A DNA stretch of 64,000 bases from Escherichia coli (GTDB lineage: Bacteria; Pseudomonadota; Gammaproteobacteria; Enterobacterales; Enterobacteriaceae): assembly GCF_050920415.1 (NCBI RefSeq), contig NZ_CP169309.1. The stretch is one strand, 5' to 3'. The number at the start of each line of letters is the position of its first letter. Positions within the stretch are counted from its first letter, which is position 1. Below are positions 1 through 61,299 of this stretch, in pieces. A program made the translations under genes and the position numbers. Below the pieces are notes generated by a model. That model was not told the origin of the DNA. It made no database searches and worked only from the letters and a program-made list of their open reading frames with translations.

Positions 1-21
1 ATTACCCGCTACGCCAGCAGA

Positions 22-684
22 TTAAGTATTTTCCAGATAATGCTTCAGTGTTAAACGCAGTTCCGGGCTCATGCTGTCCAGGTTATTAAATAACCAGCGC
101 AGATAGCCCGGATCGCGTTCGGCAACGTCGGAAACCGCTTTGCCACGGTATTTGCCAAAGGTGAAGGTCGTCATCAACGATGGACGTCCGGTGATATCGG
201 CCATCTGTTCTGCCGTCCAGCCGGAGGTGTTCATAATATCGATAAGCAACGCAGCGGTGATATAACAGTCATACAACGCGCGGTGATGATGCAGGCCCGG
301 CGGCGTCTGTACATTGAGCTTCCGTGTTTTATATAACGCCATATTGCTGTACTTGATCCCTGGCCACAGACGACGGGCCAGTTTCATAGTGCAAATCCAC
401 TCACCGGGCATCTCAGGCAGTACGCGGCGGTCAAAGCTGGCGTTGTGCGCGACATACCATTCACTACCGTAATAGTGCGGGATCACATCTTCAATCCACG
501 GTTTATCGGCGACCATGGCTTCGGTGATGCGATGAATCGCCATCGCCTGTGGACTAATAGGACGATCGGGGCGCACCAGGTGGCTCATGGGGTTGACGAT
601 TTTTCCGTCAATGACATCAACAGAGGCAATCTCAACGATCCCTCCCTGCAAACCGCAGGTTTCTGTATCGATAATGCGCAACAT
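22..684 (-). CDS. exoX: exodeoxyribonuclease X (DnaQ-like 3'-5' exonuclease)
   Basis: ORF 22..738 (-); translation from internal Met MLRIIDTETCGLQGG... matches E. coli ExoX (220 aa) as recalled; start placed at that Met. Confidence 0.9.
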   Translation of the reverse strand: MLRIIDTETCGLQGGIVEIASVDVIDGKIVNPMSHLVRPDRPISPQAMAIHRITEAMVADKPWIEDVIPHYYGSEWYVAHNASFDRRVLPEMPGEWICTMKLARRLWPGIKYSNMALYKTRKLNVQTPPGLHHHRALYDCYITAALLIDIMNTSGWTAEQMADITGRPSLMTTFTFGKYRGKAVSDVAERDPGYLRWLFNNLDSMSPELRLTLKHYLENT

Positions 685-707
685 GGCATGCTCCAGGCCG
701 AAAAAGC

Positions 708-1364
708 CTAGCGTAATGGAATGATATCGCCTTGCCAACCCTGTGATGAACGCTGACCGACTAACAATAATGAACCACGATCGGCGCGAACGATGAGACG
801 ACCATGTTCATCCCATAGTGCACTGTTACCACGGGCATTTGCCATCAGCACGGCAATTGAGTACTGATGTGAAAAAAATTGTAAGCGGCGGGTCGACGCC
901 AGCAGGTCGGGTTCCCCCAGACATTGCCCTGTCGTAAATAGTGAACAGGTCGGATCCATATCCATACCTTGCGGTTGTTCATCGACCACCGTGATGGTTC
1001 TGGAACGACGGCCCAGACATGCACCATGACTCTGATGGTAGATCCCTGGCGTTTTTCGCCACGGTGCGAACACCGCAATTCCACGAATAAAGCGATCGTT
1101 ATATTCAACGGGAAGGCCGGCAATGATGGTCATTCGCCAGGTCGTTGCAGCATAACAAAGCGGGTCTAACAGCGAGAGATCGGGTGGGGCAGGAAGGGCA
1201 CGTCGCGAATAATCACACCCCAGTAAAGAAAGCGATGGAAAAACTAACAGCTGACATTGTTGCCTGGCGGCGGCCCTCACAAACTCCAGATGATGAGCTA
1301 CCTGTTCAGTCAGTGAGGTTGTACGAGGCTCATATTGCGCTGCTGCGACTTTCCAGAACGACAT
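708..1364 (-). CDS. yobB: carbon-nitrogen hydrolase (nitrilase superfamily) protein
   Basis: ORF track 218 aa; position between exoX and holE as in K-12; identity recalled, not searched. Confidence 0.85.
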   Translation of the reverse strand: MSFWKVAAAQYEPRTTSLTEQVAHHLEFVRAAARQQCQLLVFPSLSLLGCDYSRRALPAPPDLSLLDPLCYAATTWRMTIIAGLPVEYNDRFIRGIAVFAPWRKTPGIYHQSHGACLGRRSRTITVVDEQPQGMDMDPTCSLFTTGQCLGEPDLLASTRRLQFFSHQYSIAVLMANARGNSALWDEHGRLIVRADRGSLLLVGQRSSQGWQGDIIPLR

Positions 1365-1465
1365 AATGACTTCCTTTTCAAAATGACTGTAAATTATGGG
1401 TGCGGTTTAGAAAATACTCATAATTTAGCAGGCGTTATGTAAGAAAGTGTAACTCTGTATAAGTT

Positions 1466-1696
1466 TTATTTAAGTTTGGGCTCGTAAGGTAAACGTGACA
1501 GATTGACCGAAGCCAAACGGTGGGCGATAAGCCGCTCGCGAAACCAGCTGCGCAAATGTTCAGGCTGTTCACGTTCAACCGCTTCAGCGATCACCGGCAT
1601 ATTGTAGCGTTCTTTAAATGCCACCCCGGCTGCCGCCAAATCGACATTCACTTTATCCATTTCTGTTTGATCCAGTTTAGCCAGATTCTTCAGCAT
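1466..1696 (-). CDS. holE: DNA polymerase III theta subunit
   Basis: ORF 1466..1783 (-); internal Met [35 protein letters not shown]... gives 76 aa matching HolE. Confidence 0.9.
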
Positions 1697-1834
1697 TCTT
1701 AATCTCCTCATCATTCGCGGGCAAAAGTTACTAAGAGTGAGCCTGGATGGCAAGCCGGAATTGATGATCCTCGACTCAGACATTAGACAAGGTTATGCTC
1801 TGTAAAAAAGTTATTACAAAAAGGAATAGATAAT

Positions 1835-2209
1835 ATGACTTCAACTGCACGCTCCTTTCGCTACGCGCTGGCAATCCTGACCACTACGTTGGTGACACCT
1901 TCCGTCTGGGCACATGCGCATTTAACGCATCAGTATCCTGCGGCAAACGCGCAAGTGACAGCTGCCCCGCAGGCAATCACTTTAAACTTCTCGGAAGGCG
2001 TTGAAACAGGATTCAGTGGTGCAAAAATCACGGGGCCAAAAAACGAAAATATTAAAACATTACCGGCGAAGCGGAATGAGCAGGACCAAAAGCAACTGAT
2101 TGTTCCACTGGCCGATTCGCTGAAACCCGGAACCTACACCGTTGACTGGCATGTTGTTTCGGTGGACGGGCATAAAACGAAAGGGCACTACACCTTTAGC
2201 GTGAAATAA
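1835..2209 (+). CDS. yobA: CopC-family periplasmic copper-binding protein
   Basis: ORF 124 aa with N-terminal signal peptide then HAHL... (mature N-terminal His typical of CopC Cu site). Confidence 0.9.
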   Translation: MTSTARSFRYALAILTTTLVTPSVWAHAHLTHQYPAANAQVTAAPQAITLNFSEGVETGFSGAKITGPKNENIKTLPAKRNEQDQKQLIVPLADSLKPGTYTVDWHVVSVDGHKTKGHYTFSVK

Positions 2210-2212
2210 ATC

Positions 2213-3085
2213 ATGCTGGCGTTTACCTGGATCGCGCTGCGATTTATCCATTTCACCTCGCTGATGCTGGTTTTTGGCTTCGCAATGTACGGTGCCTGGC
2301 TGGCCCCCTTAACGATTCGTCGCTTGCTGACGAAGCGTTTTCTGCGTTTACAACAGCACGCTGCCGTCTGGAGTTTGATCAGTGCCACTGCAATGCTCGC
2401 CGTTCAGGGCGGGTTGATGGGAACGGGATGGTCAGATGTATTTTCGCCAAACATTTGGCAGGCTGTTTTGCAAACGCAGTTTGGTGGCGTCTGGTTATGG
2501 CAAATTGTTCTCGCCCTCGTAACGTTGATCGTCGCCCTTATGCAACCGCGGAATATGCCACGTTTGCTGTTTATGCTCACTACCGCGCAATTTATTCTGC
2601 TGGCGGGAGTCGGGCATGCGACGCTGAATGAAGGGGTAACGGCGAAAATCCATCAGACTAATCACGCGATTCACCTGATCTGTGCGGCGGCGTGGTTTGG
2701 AGGATTACTTCCGGTGCTCTGGTGTATGCAACTCATCAAAGGCCGTTGGCGACACCAGGCTATTCAGGCGCTGATGCGTTTTTCCTGGTGCGGGCATTTT
2801 GCGGTGATCGGCGTACTGGCAAGCGGCGTGCTTAATGCATTGTTGATTACCAGATTTCCCCCCACGCTTACGACTTACTGGGGCCAACTCTTATTGCTCA
2901 AAGCCATCCTGGTGATGATTATGGTGGTCATCGCGCTGGCTAATCGTTATGTTCTTGTACCGCGCATGAGGCAGGATGAAAATCGTGCGGCTCCCTGGTT
3001 TGTGTGGATGACTAAACTCGAATGGGCGATAGGTGCGGTAGTGCTGGTGATCATCAGCCTGCTTGCGACTCTCGAACCTTTTTGA
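2213..3085 (+). CDS. copD: CopD-family inner membrane copper resistance protein
   Basis: ORF 290 aa, polytopic membrane protein, 3 nt after yobA stop (operon); matches YebZ/CopD. Confidence 0.9.
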   Translation: MLAFTWIALRFIHFTSLMLVFGFAMYGAWLAPLTIRRLLTKRFLRLQQHAAVWSLISATAMLAVQGGLMGTGWSDVFSPNIWQAVLQTQFGGVWLWQIVLALVTLIVALMQPRNMPRLLFMLTTAQFILLAGVGHATLNEGVTAKIHQTNHAIHLICAAAWFGGLLPVLWCMQLIKGRWRHQAIQALMRFSWCGHFAVIGVLASGVLNALLITRFPPTLTTYWGQLLLLKAILVMIMVVIALANRYVLVPRMRQDENRAAPWFVWMTKLEWAIGAVVLVIISLLATLEPF

Positions 3086-3097
3086 TGGATTACGAAA

Positions 3098-3439
3098 ATG
3101 ATGAAAAAAAGTATTCTGGCGTTTCTGTTACTCACCAGTTCTGCAGCGGCGCTGGCGGCACCGCAGGTGATTACCGTCAGTCGTTTTGAAGTGGGTAAAG
3201 ACAAATGGGCATTTAACCGCGAAGAGGTGATGCTGACATGCCGACCGGGCCATGCGTTGTATGTTATTAATCCGAGTACCCTCGTGCAGTATCCTTTGAA
3301 CGATATCGCACAAAAGGAAGTCGCCAGCGGGAAGACCAATGCCCAGCCCATTTCGGTGATTCAGATTGATGATCCTAACAATCCAGGTGAAAAAATGAGT
3401 CTGGCACCGTTTATAGAGCGAGCTGAAAAACTCTGTTAA
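3098..3439 (+). CDS. yebY: DUF2511 family secreted protein
   Basis: ORF 113 aa with signal peptide; third gene of yobA-copD-yebY operon. Confidence 0.85.
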
Positions 3440-3509: not shown

Positions 3510-3596
3510 AACATTTAAGCTGATGACCACCACGCTTTTTATTGACCATTTTGCACGCAAACTGGAAAACCTGGCGTCGTCATCTATTCTTAAAGG

Positions 3597-3699
3597 GCAA
3601 GGCAACTAAGCCTGCATTAATGCCAACTTTTAGCGCACGGCTCTCTCCCAAGAGCCATTTCCCTGGACCGAATACAGGAATCGTGTTCGGTCTCTTTTT
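3597..3699 (+). ncRNA. sdsR: SdsR (RyeB) RpoS-dependent sRNA
   Basis: Sequence GCAAGGCAACTAAGCCTGCATTAATGCC...CCGAATACAGGAATCGTGTTCGGTCTCTTTTT matches SdsR as recalled; sigmaS-like -10 TCTATTCTT at 3582..3590; 3' terminator hairpin plus T-run. Confidence 0.7.
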
Positions 3700-3833
3700 A
3701 TCTGTTAAAAGCCAGAAGCATTCCCTTCGCTGACTTTATAGTCAACCATAACACACACTCTACTGTCTGAGTCCAGCGTTTTTTAACATTCTTGTTAAGA
3801 TTATGTGATCTTTAGCGCGGGAGGAAAATATTG

Positions 3834-4490
3834 ATGAAACAGCCTGCGCCCGTTTATCAGAGAATTGCGGGTCATCAATGGCGACATATCTGGCTTTCAG
3901 GTGATATACACGGATGTCTTGAGCAGTTGCGCCGCAAATTATGGCATTGTCGTTTTGATCCGTGGCGAGATTTACTTATCTCAGTGGGAGACGTTATCGA
4001 TCGTGGGCCGCAAAGTTTACGCTGTCTGCAGTTACTGGATCAACGTTGGGTTCGTGCGGTAAGAGGCAATCATGAACAGATGGCGATGGATGCGCTGGCA
4101 TCCCAGCAGATGTCTTTGTGGTTGATGAATGGCGGCGACTGGTTTATTGCGCTGGCAGATAATCAACAGAAACAAGCGAAAACGGCGCTGGAAAAATGTC
4201 AGTATTTGCCCTTTATTCTTGAAGTACACAGTCGCACCGGCAAACATGTTATTGCCCATGCCGATTATCCGGATGATGTTTATGAATGGCAAAAGGACGT
4301 CGATTTGCATCAGGTCTTGTGGAGCCGCTCACGATTACGTGAAGGCCAAAAAGGGCAGGGAATTACAGGTGCTGATCATTTCTGGTTTGGTCATACACCG
4401 TTGCGCCATCGCGTGGATATTGGCAACCTACATTATATTGATACCGGTGCTGTCTTTGGGGGAGAACTGACTCTTGTGCAATTGCAATAA
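3834..4490 (+). CDS. pphA: serine/threonine protein phosphatase 1 (PrpA)
   Basis: ORF 3831..4490; metallophosphatase motifs GDIHG, GDVIDRG, GNHE visible; 218 aa from second Met. Confidence 0.9.
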   Translation: MKQPAPVYQRIAGHQWRHIWLSGDIHGCLEQLRRKLWHCRFDPWRDLLISVGDVIDRGPQSLRCLQLLDQRWVRAVRGNHEQMAMDALASQQMSLWLMNGGDWFIALADNQQKQAKTALEKCQYLPFILEVHSRTGKHVIAHADYPDDVYEWQKDVDLHQVLWSRSRLREGQKGQGITGADHFWFGHTPLRHRVDIGNLHYIDTGAVFGGELTLVQLQ

Positions 4491-4682
4491 TTAAAAATCA
4501 CCGTACTCCTGTGCAGGTCGCCAGAAACCATCTATAAAATCCTCAATCGGAAAACAACCGCCATGGCGGATCCGTTGATCGCTCATAGAATAAAGACACT
4601 GTTGTTCCGTGTTGTAGACATCCACAACAATATCTTCACAACCGCCATCCAGGTAGCAAACAAAAAGTACCAGCGCGAACAT
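4491..4682 (-). CDS. yebW: uncharacterized small protein YebW
   Basis: ORF 4491..4766 (-); internal Met MFALVLFVCYLDGG... gives 63 aa as in K-12; abuts pphA stop. Confidence 0.7.
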   Translation of the reverse strand: MFALVLFVCYLDGGCEDIVVDVYNTEQQCLYSMSDQRIRHGGCFPIEDFIDGFWRPAQEYGDF

Positions 4683-18542: not shown

Positions 18543-19211
18543 TCCTTCCTCAATCTTGAGTAACCCCGTCGTTGAAGGGTTACTCAATTCATCCTGATTA
18601 TACGCACTGTCATGGTGCAACTGCTTCAAATTAAAACTCTGGTCTGACTTCAAATAATTATCATATTATTTATTTGCGTAACGGGATATCAGAAAAAGAT
18701 ATTTAGCCCATTAATTTATTAGGATGTTTACATCGGATTTGTGATTAAGCGTGTTATTATTTATTAGCGAAACGTTTCTCTCTTGATTTTTTTGCGCATT
18801 CATCAATTTTTCTTATTTTAAATTTACAATACCTTTGGCGATTGACTTCTCTTTGGGGTGATTGATAGCCGTTAACTGACTGTTTTATGAGAAAAAGTGA
18901 TATAACTTTTTATTCATTGCATAGCAGAAAATGTGATATTGCACGCACTATGTAATAACTTCTCCCATTGGCCTGGAACAACTGAACTTATTGAACTATG
19001 TTAGAAAATACGTCAGTTTAAGTATCTGCCTGAACTGGCAAGGTTAAGCACAATGATATATCGGCGCGTATTCCGTTGCATAAGTGTGCAAAAAAAGTGG
19101 AAGACGTATCGAGATTTGTGCGTCTGATCGAGACATGTTTAAAAATGGCTTGCCATAATTAACGTTGTATGTGATAACAGATTTCGGGTTAAACGAGGTA
19201 CAGTTCTGTTT

Positions 19212-19355
19212 ATGTGTGGCATTTTCAGTAAAGAAGTCCTGAGTAAACACGTTGACGTTGAATACCGCTTCTCTGCCGAGCCTTATATTGGTGCCTCATG
19301 CAGTAATGTGTCAGTTTTATCTATGTTATGCCTGCGGGCGAAGAAAACAATCTAA
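19212..19355 (+). CDS. yobF: small protein YobF
   Basis: 47-codon [50 protein letters not shown] read by eye, 12 nt upstream of cspC; absent from ORF track. Confidence 0.8.
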
Positions 19356-19367
19356 GGAATTTTTCAA

Positions 19368-19577
19368 ATGGCAAAGATTAAAGGTCAGGTTAAGTGGTTC
19401 AACGAGTCTAAAGGTTTTGGCTTCATTACTCCGGCTGATGGCAGCAAAGACGTGTTCGTACACTTCTCCGCTATCCAGGGTAATGGCTTCAAAACTCTGG
19501 CTGAAGGTCAGAACGTTGAGTTCGAAATTCAGGACGGCCAGAAAGGTCCGGCAGCTGTTAACGTAACAGCTATCTGA
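19368..19577 (+). CDS. cspC: cold-shock-domain protein CspC
   Basis: ORF 69 aa [20 protein letters not shown]... with RNP motifs. Confidence 0.97.
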
Positions 19578-19622
19578 TCGAATCCACTGATCTGAAGTGT
19601 GAATACGCTTCAATCTCGCTAT

Positions 19623-19649
19623 AAAGCCTCGTCGAATGCGAGGCTTTTT
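19623..19649 (+). terminator. intrinsic terminator of cspC
   Basis: stem AAAGCCTCG / CGAGGCTTT followed by TT. Confidence 0.8.
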
Positions 19650-19742
19650 ACTTTGCTTTATCTTCGCTCCTGGCATTCGGATATTTGCCCGCCGCGTGAT
19701 TCGCGTTACACTTGCGGCCTTTAGTATCCTGCCGGAGTTGTC

Positions 19743-20552
19743 ATGTCGTTTTCCTGTCCACTTTGCCATCAGCCTCTTTCGCGTGAAAAAAACAGCTATA
19801 TCTGTCCCCAGCGACATCAGTTTGATATGGCGAAAGAAGGGTATGTCAATCTGCTGCCCGTTCAGCATAAACGGTCTCGTGATCCGGGCGACAGCGCGGA
19901 AATGATGCAAGCACGACGCGCATTCTTAGATGCCGGACATTATCAGCCGCTGCGTGATGCAATTGTTGCCCAACTGCGGGAACAGCTTGATGAAACGGCC
20001 ACGGCGGTGCTGGATATCGGCTGTGGTGAAGGGTATTACACACACGCATTTGCCGATGCGTTGCCCGAAATCACCACGTTTGGTCTGGATGTCTCGAAGG
20101 TGGCGATCAAAGCTGCGGCAAAACGCTATCCGCAGGTCACTTTTTGTGTCGCTTCCAGTCACCGTTTGCCGTTTGCCGATGCCAGCATGAACGCCATTAT
20201 TCGCATCTATGCGCCGTGTAAAGCAGAAGAATTAGCGCGCGTAGTGAAGCCCGGCGGTTGGATCATTACAGCTACGCCGGGACCGCGACATTTGATGGAG
20301 CTGAAGGGGCTGATTTACAATGAAGTACATCTTCATGCACCTCATGCAGAACAGCTGGAAGGTTTTACATTACAGCAGAGTGATGAATTGTGTTATCTGA
20401 TGCGTCTTCGCGGTGATGAGGCCGTCGCGTTATTGCAGATGACGCCGTTTGCCTGGCGTGCGAAGCCAGAAGTCTGGCAAACGCTGGCAGCAAAAGAAGT
20501 GTTTGACTGCCAGACGGACTTTAATATTCACCTCTGGCAGCGCTCTTATTAA
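19743..20552 (+). CDS. rlmA: 23S rRNA m1G745 methyltransferase
   Basis: ORF 269 aa; N-terminal Cys4 zinc motif (CPLC...CPQRH) and SAM-binding DIGCGEGYY. Confidence 0.9.
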
Positions 20553-21115
20553 CCGTGGTAGTGCGTCCAGAGGATCTGGACGCCGATGCCGATCAGCACC
20601 AACCCGCCGAGAATTTCTGCTTTTTTCCCAATAATTGAGCCGATAAAGCGGCCAACCATCATCCCTAATGTCGACATAATCAAGGTTGCACAACCAATGG
20701 CCAATGCGGTCGCGATAATGTTGACCTGCAGGAAGGCCAGACCAACCCCCACAGCCATCGCATCCAGGCTGGTGGCAATCGCGGTGGTTACCAGTAGCCA
20801 GAAACCGTGTCGACGGCGCGGTTCTTCATCTTCATCATCTGCGCCACGAAAACCCTCAATAATCATTCGCCCGCCGAGGAATATCAGCAGCACAAACGCA
20901 ATCCAGTGGTTCCATTCAAGGACAAACCGGCTGGCTAACATGCCCATTCCCCAGCCGATCAGCGGTGTCAGGGTTTCGACGGCACCAAAAATAAGGCCGG
21001 TTCGCAACGCTTCAGAAAATTTCGGTTTATGGAGGGTGGCACCTTTACCGATTGATGCAGCAAATGCATCCATCGACATACCAAACGCAAGAAGAACAGT
21101 AGCAGTGATATTCAT
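20549..21115 (-). CDS. mntP: manganese efflux pump MntP
   Basis: ORF 20549..21169; start at [21 protein letters not shown]... gives 188 aa. Confidence 0.9.
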
Positions 21116-21124
21116 GACAACGTC

Positions 21125-21345
21125 CTGACCGGGGTATCCATAAAACACACCATCGCCCCCAGCAAACATGCATACATGAACAACAAACCGCGATGATTTT
21201 CGCGTTCATGCAGGCATAGCGATTGATGTGCATATGGTCTCGCCTGACTGAAAGTGTTCAGTCCGTACGTGCCACGTTTTGCAACGAGTATGTTGACACG
21301 TACATTTCCGGAATCTGGAAATCGGCTACTCCCCAAATGAGGGCG
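21125..21345 (-). ncRNA. yybP-ykoY manganese riboswitch in mntP 5' leader (approximate bounds)
   Basis: Minus-strand motif GGGGAGTAGCC (complement of 21324..21334) typical of the yybP-ykoY class; long untranslated leader upstream of mntP. Confidence 0.5.
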
Positions 21346-25217: not shown

Positions 25218-26774
25218 ATGGAATTCTTAATGGACCCCTCAATTTGGGCGGGGCTACTCACGCTTGTTGTTCTCGAAATTGTGCTGGGTATCGATAACCT
25301 GGTCTTCATCGCCATTCTTGCTGACAAACTGCCGCCAAAACAACGCGATAAAGCGCGTTTGCTGGGATTATCACTGGCGCTGATTATGCGTCTGGGGCTG
25401 CTGTCGCTGATTTCATGGATGGTCACGCTGACCAAACCGCTCTTTACCGTCATGGATTTCTCCTTCTCCGGACGCGACCTGATTATGTTGTTCGGGGGGA
25501 TATTCTTGCTGTTCAAAGCAACAACCGAACTGCATGAACGGCTGGAAAACCGCGATCATGATTCCGGCCACGGTAAAGGCTACGCCAGTTTCTGGGTGGT
25601 CGTCACACAGATCGTCATCCTTGACGCCGTCTTCTCGTTGGATGCGGTAATTACGGCAGTAGGGATGGTTAACCATCTACCGGTGATGATGGCGGCGGTG
25701 GTGATTGCGATGGCGGTCATGTTGCTGGCATCGAAACCGCTGACGCGATTTGTTAATCAGCATCCAACGGTGGTGGTGCTCTGTCTGAGCTTCCTGTTAA
25801 TGATTGGTCTGAGTCTGGTGGCAGAAGGTTTCGGTTTCCACATTCCGAAAGGTTACCTGTATGCCGCGATTGGCTTCTCGATCATCATCGAAGTGTTTAA
25901 CCAGATTGCGCGTCGCAACTTTATTCGTCACCAGTCGACTTTGCCGCTGCGTGCGCGTACTGCCGATGCCATCCTGCGTTTGATGGGGGGGAAACGTCAG
26001 GCCAATGTTCAGCACGATGCCGATAACCCGATGCCTATCCCGGTACCGGAAGGTGCGTTTGCCGAAGAAGAACGTTACATGATTAACGGCGTACTGACGC
26101 TGGCGTCGCGTTCTCTGCGCGGGATCATGACGCCGCGCGGTGAAATAAGTTGGGTTGACGCTAATCTCGGGGTGGATGAAATCCGTGAGCAGCTGCTCTC
26201 CTCACCGCACAGTCTGTTCCCGGTATGTCGCGGTGAACTGGATGAAATCATCGGTATCGTACGTGCTAAAGAACTGCTGGTGGCGCTCGAAGAAGGTGTT
26301 GATGTGGCGGCGATTGCTTCGGCGTCTCCGGCGATTATCGTCCCTGAAACCCTTGACCCGATCAACCTACTGGGCGTGCTGCGTCGTGCTCGCGGGAGCT
26401 TCGTTATCGTGACCAACGAGTTTGGTGTGGTACAAGGCCTGGTCACGCCGCTGGATGTGCTGGAAGCCATTGCGGGTGAATTCCCGGACGCTGACGAAAC
26501 GCCGGAAATCATTACCGATGGTGACGGCTGGCTGGTAAAAGGCGGTACAGATTTGCATGCCTTGCAGCAGGCGCTTGATGTTGAGCACCTTGCCGATGAC
26601 GATGATATCGCGACGGTCGCGGGCCTCGTGATCTCGGCAAATGGTCACATTCCCCGTGTGGGCGATGTGATTGATGTAGGGCCACTGCATATCACCATCA
26701 TTGAAGCCAATGATTATCGTGTTGATCTGGTTCGCATTGTTAAAGAGCAACCGGCGCACGATGAAGATGAGTAA
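25218..26774 (+). CDS. yoaE: TerC-family membrane protein with CBS/CorC domains
   Basis: ORF 518 aa. Confidence 0.9.
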
Positions 26775-26777
26775 GCG

Positions 26778-28376
26778 TTAACGTAACGGCATAACGGGCG
26801 TGATATGTCCATTATGCCGGGCGGGCGGCGGTTGGCTGCCCGCCAGCCATTTGGGAAAATCACGTAGCGGCATCGGCTGTGCGTACAAATACCCTTGCAA
26901 AATATGCACGCCATGACGGCGCAAATACTTCGCCTGTTCTTGTGTTTCCACACCCTCCGCCACCAGTTCAATATTCAGTCTTTGCCCCAGTGCGATGATG
27001 ATATCGGTCACCGTCGAGTTAACCGCGTCAGAACCTATAGCTGCGGTAAATGACTTATCAATTTTCAGCACGTCAGGACGTAATGTTTCAAGCCAGGAAA
27101 ATGAACTGTTGCCGGTGCCGAAGTCATCAATCGCCAGTTTGACGTTTTTACGATGCAGCTCGCGGGCAATCCGATAATCAACATCCAGTAAGGCATCGCG
27201 TTCGGTGATTTCGAGGATTAGTTGCTGAATCGGGTGAGCGCTAAACCAGTACTGATTGAGATCTTTTATCAGCACACCACGGCGAAAATGGCTGGGTGCG
27301 ACGTTAATGCCAATATGAAACTGACTACTCATTGGGAAAACATGCCGCTGACGGATGGTTTCTGCCATCACATAGCGGGTCAGTGGCACAATTAAATGAT
27401 GTTCTTCCGCGATAGGAATAAACACATCCGGTGAAATCCAGCCCTGACGTGGATTGTTCCAGCGCAGCAAAATCTCTACACCAATACATTGCTGGCTGCG
27501 CGCATTAAGCAAAGGCTGGCAGAACAATTCGAACTCATGTTGCGCCAGGCCCAGATTGATTTCACGGGAAAAACTCATCCGGTAAGCGGTCGCCAGCCAG
27601 GCGATATAGCTCACAAGTAAACTTAGCAGCACCGCCAGCGGTAATTGTGTTGGAAGATAGTGCCATGCCAGCGCCGTAGCCCCCGGACCATTAACGTTAA
27701 TGGTAAAAGGAAAGCGTTGCGAAGAAACATGATAGTTTTCATTGTCTTCAGGTTGCGGAAGGGAATCTACCAGCCCATTACCATAGAGCAAATGCCGATC
27801 GTCCACCGTCAGGCTGGCGCTACTGATTTGCGGCAGTTGTGGCTCAAGCAGCATTGCCGCCAGTAAGTCGATGTTGATCATCTCCATGACCCCAGCATTG
27901 CTGCTGCCCGCTGCAGGCGTCCATTGAATCAAAACCGGACTGCCTTTAATCAGGGCATGGTCGGTCGTCAGTCGTAAAAGTGGTTGCGGTGCAGGAAGTT
28001 CAGCCAGAATGTCCACGACGGGCACATTGCGATAACCAAAAATGCTGGAGCAATAAAGTGTGCCGTCTTGCACCAGGCCAATGGATCGCACAGTTTGGAG
28101 TTTTGCCGCCTGTTTACGTAATGGCAAATGGGCGACAGAGCAGGGCAGACCAATTAGCGGAAGTAAGACTTCGCTACCTGCCTGTAGGGGAAGCAGTACT
28201 TTATCTAATTCCTCTACAGCGTGATTGGCGAATTGTACTACCCGTTGTTGATTTAAGTTACGCTGTGAAATAAATCGCACGCTCAGGGTCGAAGCGAGCG
28301 TAACGAGTGCGCAAATCGTACAAACAATCATTCGATTACGGCGATAGGTTTTAATGATCCGTTGTGCTTTTTGCAT
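26778..28376 (-). CDS. pdeD: c-di-GMP phosphodiesterase PdeD (CSS-domain EAL protein)
   Basis: ORF 26778..28406; EAL-domain signature IGVEILLRW visible; 532 aa from MQKAQRII...; start uncertain. Confidence 0.85.
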   Translation of the reverse strand: MQKAQRIIKTYRRNRMIVCTICALVTLASTLSVRFISQRNLNQQRVVQFANHAVEELDKVLLPLQAGSEVLLPLIGLPCSVAHLPLRKQAAKLQTVRSIGLVQDGTLYCSSIFGYRNVPVVDILAELPAPQPLLRLTTDHALIKGSPVLIQWTPAAGSSNAGVMEMINIDLLAAMLLEPQLPQISSASLTVDDRHLLYGNGLVDSLPQPEDNENYHVSSQRFPFTINVNGPGATALAWHYLPTQLPLAVLLSLLVSYIAWLATAYRMSFSREINLGLAQHEFELFCQPLLNARSQQCIGVEILLRWNNPRQGWISPDVFIPIAEEHHLIVPLTRYVMAETIRQRHVFPMSSQFHIGINVAPSHFRRGVLIKDLNQYWFSAHPIQQLILEITERDALLDVDYRIARELHRKNVKLAIDDFGTGNSSFSWLETLRPDVLKIDKSFTAAIGSDAVNSTVTDIIIALGQRLNIELVAEGVETQEQAKYLRRHGVHILQGYLYAQPMPLRDFPKWLAGSQPPPARHNGHITPVMPLR

Positions 28377-37055: not shown

Positions 37056-38741
37056 TTGAAGAAGGTTTGGCTTAACCGTTATCCCGCGGACGTTCCGACG
37101 GAGATCAACCCTGACCGTTATCAATCTCTGGTAGATATGTTTGAGCAGTCGGTCGCGCGCTACGCCGATCAACCCGCGTTTGTGAATATGGGGGAGGTGA
37201 TGACCTTCCGCAAACTGGAAGAACGCAGTCGCGCGTTTGCCGCTTATTTGCAACAAGGGTTGGGACTGAAGAAAGGCGATCGCGTTGCGTTGATGATGCC
37301 TAATTTATTGCAATATCCGGTGGCGCTGTTTGGCATTTTGCGTGCCGGGATGATTGTCGTAAACGTTAACCCGTTGTATACCCCGCGTGAACTTGAGCAT
37401 CAGCTTAACGATAGCGGCGCATCGGCGATTGTTATCGTGTCTAACTTTGCCCACACTCTGGAAAAAGTGGTTGATAAAACCGCCGTTCAGCACGTAATTC
37501 TGACCCGTATGGGCGATCAGCTATCTACGGCAAAAGGCACGGTAGTCAATTTCGTTGTTAAATACATCAAGCGTCTGGTGCCGAAATACCATCTGCCAGA
37601 TGCCATCTCATTTCGTAGCGCCCTGCACAACGGCTACCGGATGCAGTACGTCAAACCCGAACTGGTGCCGGAAGATTTAGCTTTCCTGCAATACACCGGC
37701 GGTACCACTGGTGTGGCGAAAGGCGCGATGCTGACTCACCGCAATATGCTGGCGAACCTGGAACAGGTTAACGCGACTTATGGGCCGCTGTTGCATCCGG
37801 GCAAAGAGCTGGTGGTGACGGCGCTGCCGCTGTATCACATTTTTGCACTGACCATTAACTGCCTGCTGTTTATTGAACTGGGTGGGCAGAACTTGCTTAT
37901 CACTAACCCGCGCGATATTCCGGGGTTGGTAAAAGAGTTAGCGAAATATCCGTTTACCGCGATAACCGGCGTTAACACCTTGTTCAATGCGTTGCTGAAC
38001 AATAAAGAGTTCCAGCAGCTGGATTTCTCCAGTCTGCATCTTTCTGCAGGCGGTGGTATGCCTGTTCAACAAGTGGTGGCTGAACGTTGGGTGAAACTGA
38101 CCGGACAGTATCTGCTGGAAGGTTATGGCCTGACCGAGTGTGCGCCGCTGGTCAGCGTTAACCCGTATGATATTGATTATCATAGTGGTAGCATCGGTTT
38201 GCCGGTGCCGTCGACGGAAGCCAAACTGGTGGATGATGATGATAACGAAGTACCACCGGGTCAACCGGGTGAGCTTTGTGTCAAAGGACCGCAGGTGATG
38301 CTGGGCTACTGGCAGCGTCCGGATGCCACTGATGAAATCATCAAAAACGGTTGGCTACACACTGGCGACATTGCCGTAATGGACGAAGAAGGTTTCTTAC
38401 GCATCGTTGATCGCAAAAAAGACATGATTCTGGTTTCCGGTTTTAACGTCTATCCCAACGAGATTGAAGATGTCGTCATGCAGCATCCTGGCGTACAGGA
38501 AGTCGCGGCTGTTGGCGTACCTTCCGGCTCAAGTGGTGAAGCGGTGAAAATCTTCGTTGTGAAAAAAGATCCATCGCTTACCGAAGAGTCACTGGTGACT
38601 TTTTGCCGCCGTCAGCTCACGGGCTACAAAGTACCGAAGCTGGTGGAGTTTCGTGATGAGTTACCGAAATCTAACGTCGGAAAAATTTTGCGACGAGAAT
38701 TACGTGACGAAGCGCGCGGCAAAGTGGACAATAAAGCCTGA
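37056..38741 (+). CDS. fadD: long-chain fatty acid-CoA ligase
   Basis: ORF 36990..38741; known TTG start at 37056 giving (M)[15 protein letters not shown]..., 561 aa; AMP-binding motif [16 protein letters not shown]. Confidence 0.95.
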
Positions 38742-38760
38742 GCGTTAAGTCAGTCGTCAG

Positions 38761-38787
38761 ACGCCGGTTAATCCGGCGTTTTTTTTG
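38761..38787 (+). terminator. intrinsic terminator of fadD
   Basis: stem ACGCCGG / CCGGCGT, loop TTAAT, followed by TTTTTTTT. Confidence 0.85.
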
Positions 38788-51449: not shown

Positions 51450-52271
51450 ATGATGCACAGGTTGAATCTCAATGGCTATGAACCCGACCGACACCATGAA
51501 GCCGCGGTCGCATTTTGTATTCACGCCGGAACGGATGAGTTAACCAGTCCTGTACATCAGCACCGCAAAGGGCAGCTGATACTGGCGCTACATGGTGCAA
51601 TTACCTGTACGGTGGAAAATGCGTTGTGGATGGTGCCGCCGCAATATGCGGTTTGGATACCGGGAGGGGTGGAACATAGCAATCAAGTGACAGCTAACGC
51701 TGAACTCTGTTTTTTGTTTATAGAGCCCAGCGCAGTGACAATGCCGACAACATGTTGCACATTGAAAATATCGCCCTTATGCCGGGAATTAATTTTAACC
51801 CTGGCAAACAGGACGACGACTCAGCGTGCTGAGCCGATGACCCGCAGATTAATTCAGGTCCTGTTTGATGAACTCCCTCAGCAGCCACAACAACAGCTGC
51901 ACCTGCCCGTTTCTTCTCATCCTAAAATCCGCACGATGGTGGAGATGATGGCGAAAGAGCCCGTTGAGTGGGGCTCATTGGGGCAATGGGCTGGCTTTTT
52001 TGCGATGAGTGAACGCAATCTTGCCCGGCTGATAGTGAAAGAGACGGGGTTGAGTTTTCGCCAGTGGCGTCAGCAGTTACAGCTGATTATGGCGCTTCAG
52101 GGATTAGTGAAAGGCGATACTGTACAGAAAGTTGCTCATACGCTGGGGTATGATTCAACAACGGCCTTTATTACTATGTTTAAGAAAGGCCTGGGGCAAA
52201 CGCCAGGCCGATATATTGCGGGATTAACTACTGTTTCCCCACAATCAGCGAAACCAGACCCGCGGCAATAA
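51450..52271 (+). CDS. nimR: AraC-family regulator NimR
   Basis: ORF 273 aa; cupin-like N-domain and AraC HTH C-domain. Confidence 0.9.
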
Positions 52272-52674
52272 GCGGGCCAACCGGTACGCCGCGAAACAGC
52301 GCCACGCCCAAAACAGTGCCCACCAGCAGCCCGGCGACCAGTTGCGGCTGGCTGCCCATTAACGTCACGCCGCGCCCACCTAGCCAGGAGACAATAACGC
52401 CTACTGCAATTGCCACCAGCGATTTCCAGTTCAGAAACGAGTGAATCAGGGTTGAGGGCGGTAGCGTCCCGCTGGCGATGGGGGCCATAACGCCAATCGT
52501 CAGAATGATTATCCCGATACTTAGCCCCTGTTTTTCAATCCACGGGAAAAAGGTGCTTAACGGTGTGACGCGGACAATGATTAACACCAGAATTGAAACG
52601 GCCACAGTGGTGTTATGACTGATAAAGCCCAGCGCAGCTAACCCGAGCAGGATCAGCAAAGTGACATCAAACAT
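52228..52674 (-). CDS. yeaL: UPF0756 membrane protein YeaL
   Basis: ORF 148 aa; 3' end overlaps nimR 3' end by 44 nt. Confidence 0.85.
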
Positions 52675-52842: not shown

Positions 52843-52947
52843 ATGAACGATCAAATGTTCGTTGAGACACTGATTATCACGTCATCGTTTTTTGTTATTG
52901 CTGTTGTGCTGGTTTTGTCCGTTCTGCTTATTGAACGGACAGGCTAG
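52843..52947 (+). CDS. yoaI: small membrane protein YoaI
   Basis: 34-codon [37 protein letters not shown] read by eye; not in ORF track. Confidence 0.7.
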
Positions 52948-53451
52948 TTACGCAGTGCGGCGGAAATTGACCAGTTCTGGTTGCGCAATGCGCAAATAAT
53001 CCGCAGTTTTCAAAATAACGGATTTATTCAGCATGCCTGCATTAAAGGCGATTTCATCGAATCGCTCGAAGAGCAATGGGTCGGCGACCAGTTTGAGTTT
53101 TGGATGGAAGCTGAAAGGGGGGATCGCGCCGAAGACACAGCCTGTGAGTTCATCGACTTCCGCCGGGCTGGCCAACGAAGCGCGTAATCCGCCTATATGG
53201 CTGGCGAGTTGGCTCAGATCGGCCTGTTGATCGGCCGCGAGGATCGCCAGAACATGTTGATTTACACCATTGCCTTTGACTTTACATACCAGTGCCTTAG
53301 CCCCCTGGCCTAAAGCGGTGCCACGAATTTCTGACACCGCTTCACATTTACCTACCGCTTCATGGGTAACGACGCGGAAGTCAGCACCTTCTTGTGATAA
53401 TAAAGCGATTAACCGCTGATGCGTCACGCTTCCTTTAGCCATTTCAGTCAT
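52948..53451 (-). CDS. yeaK: YbaK/ProX-family aminoacyl-tRNA deacylase
   Basis: ORF 167 aa. Confidence 0.9.
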   Translation of the reverse strand: MTEMAKGSVTHQRLIALLSQEGADFRVVTHEAVGKCEAVSEIRGTALGQGAKALVCKVKGNGVNQHVLAILAADQQADLSQLASHIGGLRASLASPAEVDELTGCVFGAIPPFSFHPKLKLVADPLLFERFDEIAFNAGMLNKSVILKTADYLRIAQPELVNFRRTA

Positions 53452-60552: not shown

Positions 60553-61299
60553 GTGACCAAACTCAAACTTCTGGCACTTGGAGTGCTTATCGCAACGTCT
60601 GCAGGCGTAGCGCACGCTGAAGGTAAATTTTCCCTGGGCGCAGGCGTAGGTGTCGTTGAACACCCATATAAAGATTACGATACCGATGTTTACCCAGTAC
60701 CGGTAATCAACTATGAAGGCGATAACTTCTGGTTCCGTGGCTTAGGTGGTGGTTACTACCTGTGGAATGACGCAACGGATAAACTTTCAATTACCGCTTA
60801 CTGGTCGCCGCTTTACTTCAAAGCTAAAGACAGTGGCGATCACCAAATGCGTCACCTGGATGACCGTAAGAGCACCATGATGGCTGGTCTGTCTTATGCT
60901 CACTTTACCCAGTACGGTTACCTGCGTACCACCCTGGCTGGCGATACCCTGGATAACAGCAACGGCATCGTCTGGGATATGGCCTGGTTGTATCGTTACA
61001 CCAACGGTGGCCTGACCGTGACTCCGGGTATTGGTGTGCAGTGGAACAGCGAAAACCAGAACGAATACTATTATGGCGTATCGCGCAAAGAGTCTGCGCG
61101 CAGCGGTCTGCGTGGCTATAACCCGAACGACAGCTGGAGCCCTTACCTGGAGCTAAGTGCCAGCTACAACTTCCTCGGTGACTGGAGTGTTTACGGTACC
61201 GCGCGCTACACCCGTCTGTCTGATGAAGTTACTGACAGCCCAATGGTGGATAAATCCTGGACTGGCCTGATTTCTACCGGGATCACCTACAAATTCTGA
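60553..61299 (+). CDS. mipA: MltA-interacting outer membrane protein
   Basis: ORF 248 aa with signal peptide; beta-barrel-like ending in aromatic residue. Confidence 0.95.
   Translation: MTKLKLLALGVLIATSAGVAHAEGKFSLGAGVGVVEHPYKDYDTDVYPVPVINYEGDNFWFRGLGGGYYLWNDATDKLSITAYWSPLYFKAKDSGDHQMRHLDDRKSTMMAGLSYAHFTQYGYLRTTLAGDTLDNSNGIVWDMAWLYRYTNGGLTVTPGIGVQWNSENQNEYYYGVSRKESARSGLRGYNPNDSWSPYLELSASYNFLGDWSVYGTARYTRLSDEVTDSPMVDKSWTGLISTGITYKF

Follow-up and report, generated by a model that had tools for sequence, protein, structure and literature searches.

The window analysed here is a stretch of 64,000 nucleotides from the core Escherichia coli chromosome that runs from pphA to gapA, in reversed orientation relative to K-12. 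Five of its convergent gene pairs end tail to tail with a gap of at most 3 nt or with an overlap. The relevant features, whose coordinates were checked against the raw sequence, mechanically made ORF lists and the RefSeq annotation, are as follows.

19743..20552, + strand: rlmA, 23S rRNA (G745-N1) methyltransferase, from the annotation and the ORF list
20549..21115, - strand: mntP, manganese efflux pump, with a Pfam Mntp domain at residues 31-182 of 188
20549..20552, both strands: the shared-stop tetranucleotide TTAA, with the rlmA TAA at 20550..20552 (+) and the mntP TAA at 20549..20551 (-), a 4-nt tail-to-tail overlap
26772..26780, both strands: yoaE/pdeD stops, with the yoaE TAA at 26772..26774 (+), a GCG spacer and the pdeD TAA at 26778..26780 (-, reading TTA)
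52945..52950, both strands: abutting yoaI/yeaK stops, with the yoaI TAG at 52945..52947 (+) and the yeaK TAA at 52948..52950 (-, reading TTA)
4488..4493, both strands: abutting pphA/yebW stops, with the pphA TAA at 4488..4490 (+) and the yebW TAA at 4491..4493 (-, reading TTA)
52228..52271, both strands: a 44-nt tail-to-tail overlap of nimR (51450..52271, +) and yeaL (52228..52674, -)

The original prediction named four of these junctions: rlmA and mntP both terminating on the TTAA, yoaE and pdeD with stops 3 nt apart, and the yoaI/yeaK and pphA/yebW pairs closing at the six-nucleotide sites listed above. The first is borne out by the raw sequence and the annotation alike, the second has exactly the spacing claimed, and the stops of both remaining pairs do abut. 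The nimR/yeaL pair is a fifth case beyond these four, and its overlap exceeds that of any of them. The rlmA/mntP arrangement is an exact instance of the 4-nt [TC]TA[AG] overlap, with both stop codons contained in one tetranucleotide. Both partners are real genes, as judged from the Mntp domain and from orthologues in 80 species that are 70-92% (RlmA) and 76-98% (MntP) identical.

The annotation was taken from NZ_CP169399.1 (E. coli MFDS1022581, 2226062..2290061), which is 100% identical to the 64-kb window; most other complete E. coli genomes are about 98% identical to it. Spacing at all five junctions is the same in K-12 MG1655, and of 5426 complete E. coli genomes at least 5410 contain any given one of the four named junction regions. 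Two stretches, 20300..20800 and 52848..53048, are unusually divergent in this strain, with only 1-2 of about 5400 genomes at least 99% identical, and in the yoaI/yeaK region 1157 genomes are only 90-95% identical to it. For the yoaE/pdeD junction, on the other hand, 4471 genomes reach 99% identity or more.

Several other features of the window are worth recording. Positions 1..3369 hold a prophage remnant (baseplate J, a DUF2612 protein, a truncated tail protein, a tail-fibre assembly protein and a truncated recombinase) that adjoins the sdsR/ryeA-pphA region, at a place where in K-12 the sdsR/ryeA small RNA genes are followed by yebY. Upstream of pphA, at 3559..3703, Rfam places the overlapping antisense small RNAs RyeA/SraC (- strand, 175 bits) and SdsR/RyeB (+ strand, 114 bits). 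The mntP leader at 21246..21342 (- strand) matches the yybP-ykoY Mn2+ riboswitch (RF00080) at 41.9 bits, just below the gathering score of 45, so that a default Rfam scan misses it; a published Rho region (K-12 1905535+) also falls in this leader. The yobF-cspC transcript matches the Rfam cspA thermoregulator at 135.7 bits (19192..19652; 19368..19577), and the gene in this transcript that PGAP labels cspE is by position the cspC orthologue. The small RNA sroD (38700..38785, + strand, 115 bits in Rfam) lies at the 3' end of fadD and coincides with a terminator hairpin at 38759..38781. In this strain mipA (60583..61298) is annotated as a frameshifted pseudogene.

Junctions of this kind are common. 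The window contains 12 convergent pairs of coding sequences with gaps of 0, 45, 143, -4, 3, 119, 53, 58, 21, -44, 0 and 50 nt (negative values are overlaps), so that 5 of the 12 are separated by 3 nt or less. The annotation of six evenly chosen 50-kb regions of K-12 (300 kb in total) served as a control, and there 9 of 51 convergent pairs (18%) are equally tight. Five of these control pairs are 4-nt overlaps (zapC/ycbX, yccX/tusE, yfeH/ypeB, yqfG/yqfH and yjfP/ulaR). The difference between 5/12 and 9/51 gives p = 0.083 in a one-sided Fisher test and p = 0.046 in a Poisson test by length, both of them post hoc. A significant local cluster of tight pairs was rejected because these values (p ~0.05-0.09) are marginal as well as post hoc. 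The clustering in the window exceeds chance at most marginally, and there is no meaningful enrichment.

Short tail-to-tail overlaps of prokaryotic genes were reportedly described by Fukuda in 2003 and by Johnson and Chisholm in 2004. For E. coli, which has 704 convergent pairs according to a 2026 preprint, Lillo and Krakauer (2007, PMC2174442) counted 58 convergent overlaps. They traced the peak at length 4 to the four-base sequences CTAA, TTAA, CTAG and TTAG, attributed convergent overlaps to stop-codon mutation, and found a Rho-independent terminator in only 20% of the E. coli genes that have them. The rlmA/mntP junction belongs exactly to this class, having a TTAA that holds both stops, and orthologues of the window junctions display the same origin in stop turnover. 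Three of the four named pairs differ from the published class in being near-overlaps: the stops touch in two of them and leave a gap of 3 nt in the other. The layout of the four pairs is thus a common, already described and ordinary kind of junction.

The history of the rlmA/mntP junction can be read in other species. We fetched the rlmA locus from 80 Enterobacteriaceae species and located both stops in each. The two genes are convergent in all 80, and in 65 they share the 4-nt overlap, for which TTAA is the usual form, TTAG an occasional one and CTAG a single case. In another 9, all of them Klebsiella/Raoultella-type genomes, the stops are 3 nt apart (gap +3). The remaining values (0, 9, -13 and -48) are single or double cases, and one gap value among the 80 species is an assembly artefact caused by an N.

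A stop codon on the opposite strand reads TTA or CTA, so with an A or G as the next base the converging gene, in one of its three frames, encounters TAA or TAG there. By this logic the stop of a neighbour provides a ready-made barrier, and no convergent overlap is commoner than [TC]TA[AG]. The barrier can be observed directly in variants of the last glycine codon of MntP. With GGT or GGC as this codon (window position 20553; alignment A1, column 19), RlmA ends at the shared tetranucleotide. With GGG or GGA, as at loci L023, L040 and L043, RlmA reads TAC or TAT instead of a stop and extends 13-48 nt into mntP. A synonymous change in the last codon of MntP can therefore lengthen RlmA by up to 15 residues.

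The other junctions behave likewise between genera. Between yoaE and pdeD the gap is 3 nt in E. coli, 21 in Salmonella, 6 in Enterobacter and -22 in Trabulsiella, while for yeaK/yoaI it is 0 in E. coli, -4 in Salmonella (on TTAG), +4 in C. koseri and +23 in Lelliottia. The yebW/pphA stops abut in E. coli, Kosakonia and Citrobacter and are 18 nt apart in Salmonella. The yeaL/nimR overlap is 44 nt in E. coli and 17-21 nt in C. koseri, Salmonella and Lelliottia. The comparison of orthologues that the original prediction had called for thus supports conservation of the 4-nt overlap at rlmA/mntP and of tightness at the other junctions across genera, but the exact stops at the latter drift. On this comparative evidence the junctions are old neighbourhoods that have stayed tight even though their stops have moved.

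With gaps of -4 to +3 nt there is no room for a terminator between the genes of the four named pairs. A consensus scan found no canonical hairpin followed by a U tract just 3' of the eight named gene ends, and an Rfam scan gave no match at any tight junction. Hairpins are nevertheless present at most of these junctions, inside the coding sequence of the partner gene.

20563..20583, + strand: rlmA 3' UTR stem-loop of nine pairs, GCGTCCAGA-GGA-TCTGGACGC, within the last 11 codons of mntP (-20.7 kcal/mol, z -3.9)
26787..26819 and 26820..26844, + strand: two consecutive stem-loops beginning 12 nt past the yoaE stop (-44.4 kcal/mol, z -4.0, 0 of 200 shuffles)
52916..52941, - strand: yeaK stem-loop of nine pairs starting 6 nt beyond the yeaK stop within the final codons of yoaI, followed by AAAACC (z -3.7 to -6.0)
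20506..20541, - strand: putative long-loop hairpin downstream of mntP, beginning 7 nt past its stop, in the last codons of rlmA (-17.3 kcal/mol, z -2.0)
52188..52209, - strand: candidate embedded intrinsic terminator of yeaL, GGCCTGG-CGTTTGCC-CCAGGCC followed by TTTCTT, 19 nt past the yeaL stop in the nimR coding sequence

The structures downstream of rlmA, yoaE and yeaK begin 6-12 nt past the respective stops, and sequence comparison shows that they are kept in K-12. The rlmA element has the G+C-rich stem-loop of an intrinsic terminator and lacks its U tract: the stem is followed by CGAUGCCGAUCAGC, and the element is absent from the list produced by the consensus scan. The yoaE and yeaK hairpins have no U tract either. 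The yoaE stem-loops occupy the last ~25 codons of pdeD, beyond the EAL domain, whose last residue is 501 of 532, and they are retained with different sequence in Salmonella, Enterobacter and Trabulsiella while the spacing of the stops drifts from -22 to +21. A reading of the yoaE/pdeD hairpins as REP elements was set aside on a judgement by eye. The hairpin downstream of mntP yielded no informative covariation because its paired columns scarcely vary. No notable structure was found by folding the RNA downstream of pphA or yebW (z -0.7 and +1.7). The candidate yeaL terminator is weak (z -0.24 for a 78-nt fold), and no yeaL 3' end is reported at this position in the published data.

Elsewhere in the window, the spacers of htpX/yebQ, rnd/yeaX, yeaQ/yoaJ and yeaE/yeaD, which are 45-58 nt long, contain clear hairpins according to the consensus scan. 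In those intergenic bidirectional terminators, as at the tight pairs, one palindromic stem-loop can serve both 3' ends. They differ in that their hairpins have a spacer to sit in, some with flanking runs of A and U, whereas the hairpins of the tight pairs are displaced into coding sequence and have no U tract behind them.

Published 3' ends place the rlmA transcript in this picture. We consulted the Term-seq and bicyclomycin tables of Adams et al. (PMC7815308), which describe K-12 rather than the present strain. A 3' end at K-12 1906214(-), classified as "primary rlmA, antisense mntP", appears in two growth-condition tables (PMC7815308). By coordinate arithmetic it corresponds to window position 20589, which lies 6 nt beyond the stem and 37 nt beyond the end of rlmA, and the mapped transcript is consequently antisense to 41 nt of mntP (20549..20589). 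A Rho score of 10.2 (p = 1e-31) is reported at K-12 1906268(-) for the rlmA end, where bicyclomycin raises read-through about 10-fold. Lower scores are listed antisense to pdeD at K-12 1899777(-) (5.5), which is 252 nt beyond the yoaE stop, and antisense to yoaI at K-12 1874225(+) (2.8), which is 148 nt beyond the yeaK stop. As each score is computed over 800 nt, all of these positions are coarse (PMC7815308). Among the ten tight-pair genes rlmA is the only one with a mapped end; the Term-seq tables contain no 3' end for the other nine, and pphA and yebW give no signal in any of the published K-12 tables (PMC7815308).

The RNA downstream of these genes is rich in C, as expected of the antisense of coding sequence, with C/G ratios of 1.76 after rlmA, 1.52 after yoaE and only 1.04 after yeaK, against 0.96 for the window. 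The features found here, namely a mapped 3' end just past a U-less stem (for rlmA only, in published data), read-through on Rho inhibition and C-rich downstream RNA, are those of the Rho-dependent transcripts of Dar and Sorek (2018, PMC6061677), which have precise 3' ends just past stable U-less stem-loops and rut sites downstream. The rlmA mRNA resembles that class in ending a few nucleotides past its stem. It differs in that the stem-loop lies in the coding sequence of a converging gene and also encodes the C-terminus of MntP.

The original prediction has to be qualified in this light. That these pairs have no intergenic terminator is literally true, there being neither a spacer nor a canonical terminator, but 3'-end signals in the form of stems and Rho regions are embedded in the partner. 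Term-seq, the check that it proposed, places the K-12 rlmA 3' end inside mntP in the published data, and this end is Rho-dependent and lies past a stem. Nor is this confined to tight pairs. In the K-12 data several pairs with roomier gaps of 50-140 nt have a Rho region within the converging partner, as is the case downstream of yeaD (in yeaE), rnd (in yeaX), yoaH (in yoaC) and yobH (in kdgR), so an intergenic terminator is not the norm, and ending inside a neighbour is not special to the tight pairs.

The rlmA stem may be under selection at the RNA level. In a gap-free alignment of the 80 species (A1), 80.7% of cells are paired, compared with 16-48% when the partner column is slid. Both sides of a pair have changed in 37 cells versus 7.2 in shuffles, with none of 500 shuffles as high, under a control that ignores phylogeny. 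Among the variants are GCGTC/GACGC in Escherichia, GTGCC/GGCAC in Citrobacter and Enterobacter, and GCGCGTAG/CTGCGCGC in Kluyvera. Wobble pairs are more frequent on the rlmA-sense RNA than on the mntP strand (58 versus 17). Codons for Q-I-L-W dictate the inner five pairs, and roughly half of the species do not form the outer ones. This covariation is suggestive of selection rather than proof of it, and shared ancestry and protein constraint could explain it in part.

Three other explanations for the tight junctions were weighed. It is extremely improbable that a mis-called 3' end or a spurious gene in each pair creates them. The smallest reading frames, yebW (63 aa) and yoaI (34 aa), might invite that suspicion, but both are conserved across genera and belong to Pfam families (DUF1482 and YldA, PF23689), the large genes have full-length domain matches, and the K-12 annotation agrees. 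A stop codon, moreover, is fixed by its reading frame and cannot be mis-called as a start can. An annotation artefact was excluded because orthologues keep their frames to the same or nearby stops. The junctions could alternatively be a selected regulatory device in which convergent antisense RNA or interference brings about mutual repression in the manner of an excludon, for example with Mn-induced mntP expression lowering rlmA. Reciprocal antisense regulation has been suggested for convergent overlaps (PMC2174442), and the rlmA transcript does reach 41 nt into mntP on the antisense side. It is conservation, with adjacency in 80/80 species and the 4-nt overlap in 65/80, that speaks for such cross-regulation. 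We nonetheless judge it very unlikely: no functional connection is evident between the partners (one pair joins an rRNA methyltransferase to a Mn exporter, another a phosphatase to a DUF1482 protein), the stops move freely from genus to genus, and the frequency of tight pairs matches the genome background.

Collision-driven bidirectional termination, in which head-on RNA polymerases stop each other at a stem-loop without Rho, is the third alternative. This model extends to hundreds of convergent genes in E. coli and needs a stem-loop in the nascent RNA (bioRxiv 10.1101/2022.10.23.513370), and a palindromic stem-loop that could form on both strands does lie near the stops at every tight junction except pphA/yebW. 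The overlapping bidirectional terminators of Ju et al. (2019), as they are described in that preprint, likewise combine a convergent pair and a stem-loop with the lack of a canonical intrinsic terminator. There they are reported to be Rho-independent, whereas published data show a strong dependence on Rho for the rlmA end, with the score of 10.2 (p = 1e-31) given above. The Term-seq tables, in addition, have no 3' end for mntP, pdeD or yoaI, which suggests low expression, and if one partner is expressed at a low level, then collisions should be rare. For these reasons we consider the collision model unlikely here.

We think it quite likely that the junctions are ordinary ones, kept by neutral stop turnover and served by Rho termination in the neighbouring gene together with an embedded stem-loop. 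Neutral stop-codon turnover would both create and maintain such tail-to-tail junctions of the core Enterobacteriaceae chromosome. As no spacer intervenes, each transcript would continue into its neighbour as untranslated, C-rich antisense RNA, and Rho would terminate this extension inside the neighbouring gene. We infer that 3'-5' exonucleases then trim the RNA back to the stable stem-loop in the last codons of the neighbour, where the embedded structure would stand in for the hairpin of an intergenic terminator. For rlmA, termination by Rho inside mntP is well supported, and trimming to the stem would be its probable sequel. The same mechanism is plausible for yoaE and yeaK, given their hairpins and Rho scores, while any mechanism for mntP, pdeD, yoaI, pphA and yebW is one that we infer.

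More tentatively, at somewhat less than even odds, the stems in codons 178-188 of mntP, in the tail of pdeD and in the C-terminus of yoaI may be separately selected as dual-coding RNA elements, each specifying the C-terminus of one protein and at the same time shielding the 3' end of the converging mRNA that Rho terminates.

Lack of an intergenic terminator is no anomaly in E. coli, where about 1 in 6 convergent pairs has no usable spacer. If the last codons of mntP, pdeD or yoaI are deleted or recoded, the rlmA, yoaE or yeaK mRNA, respectively, may lose its 3'-end structure. If the dual-coding role were general, then tight junctions would be sites where mRNA 3'-end structure visibly constrains the protein sequence of a neighbour, and examples of such constraint would be MntP's paired changes from V/T to A/A and the choice of third base in its last glycine codon.
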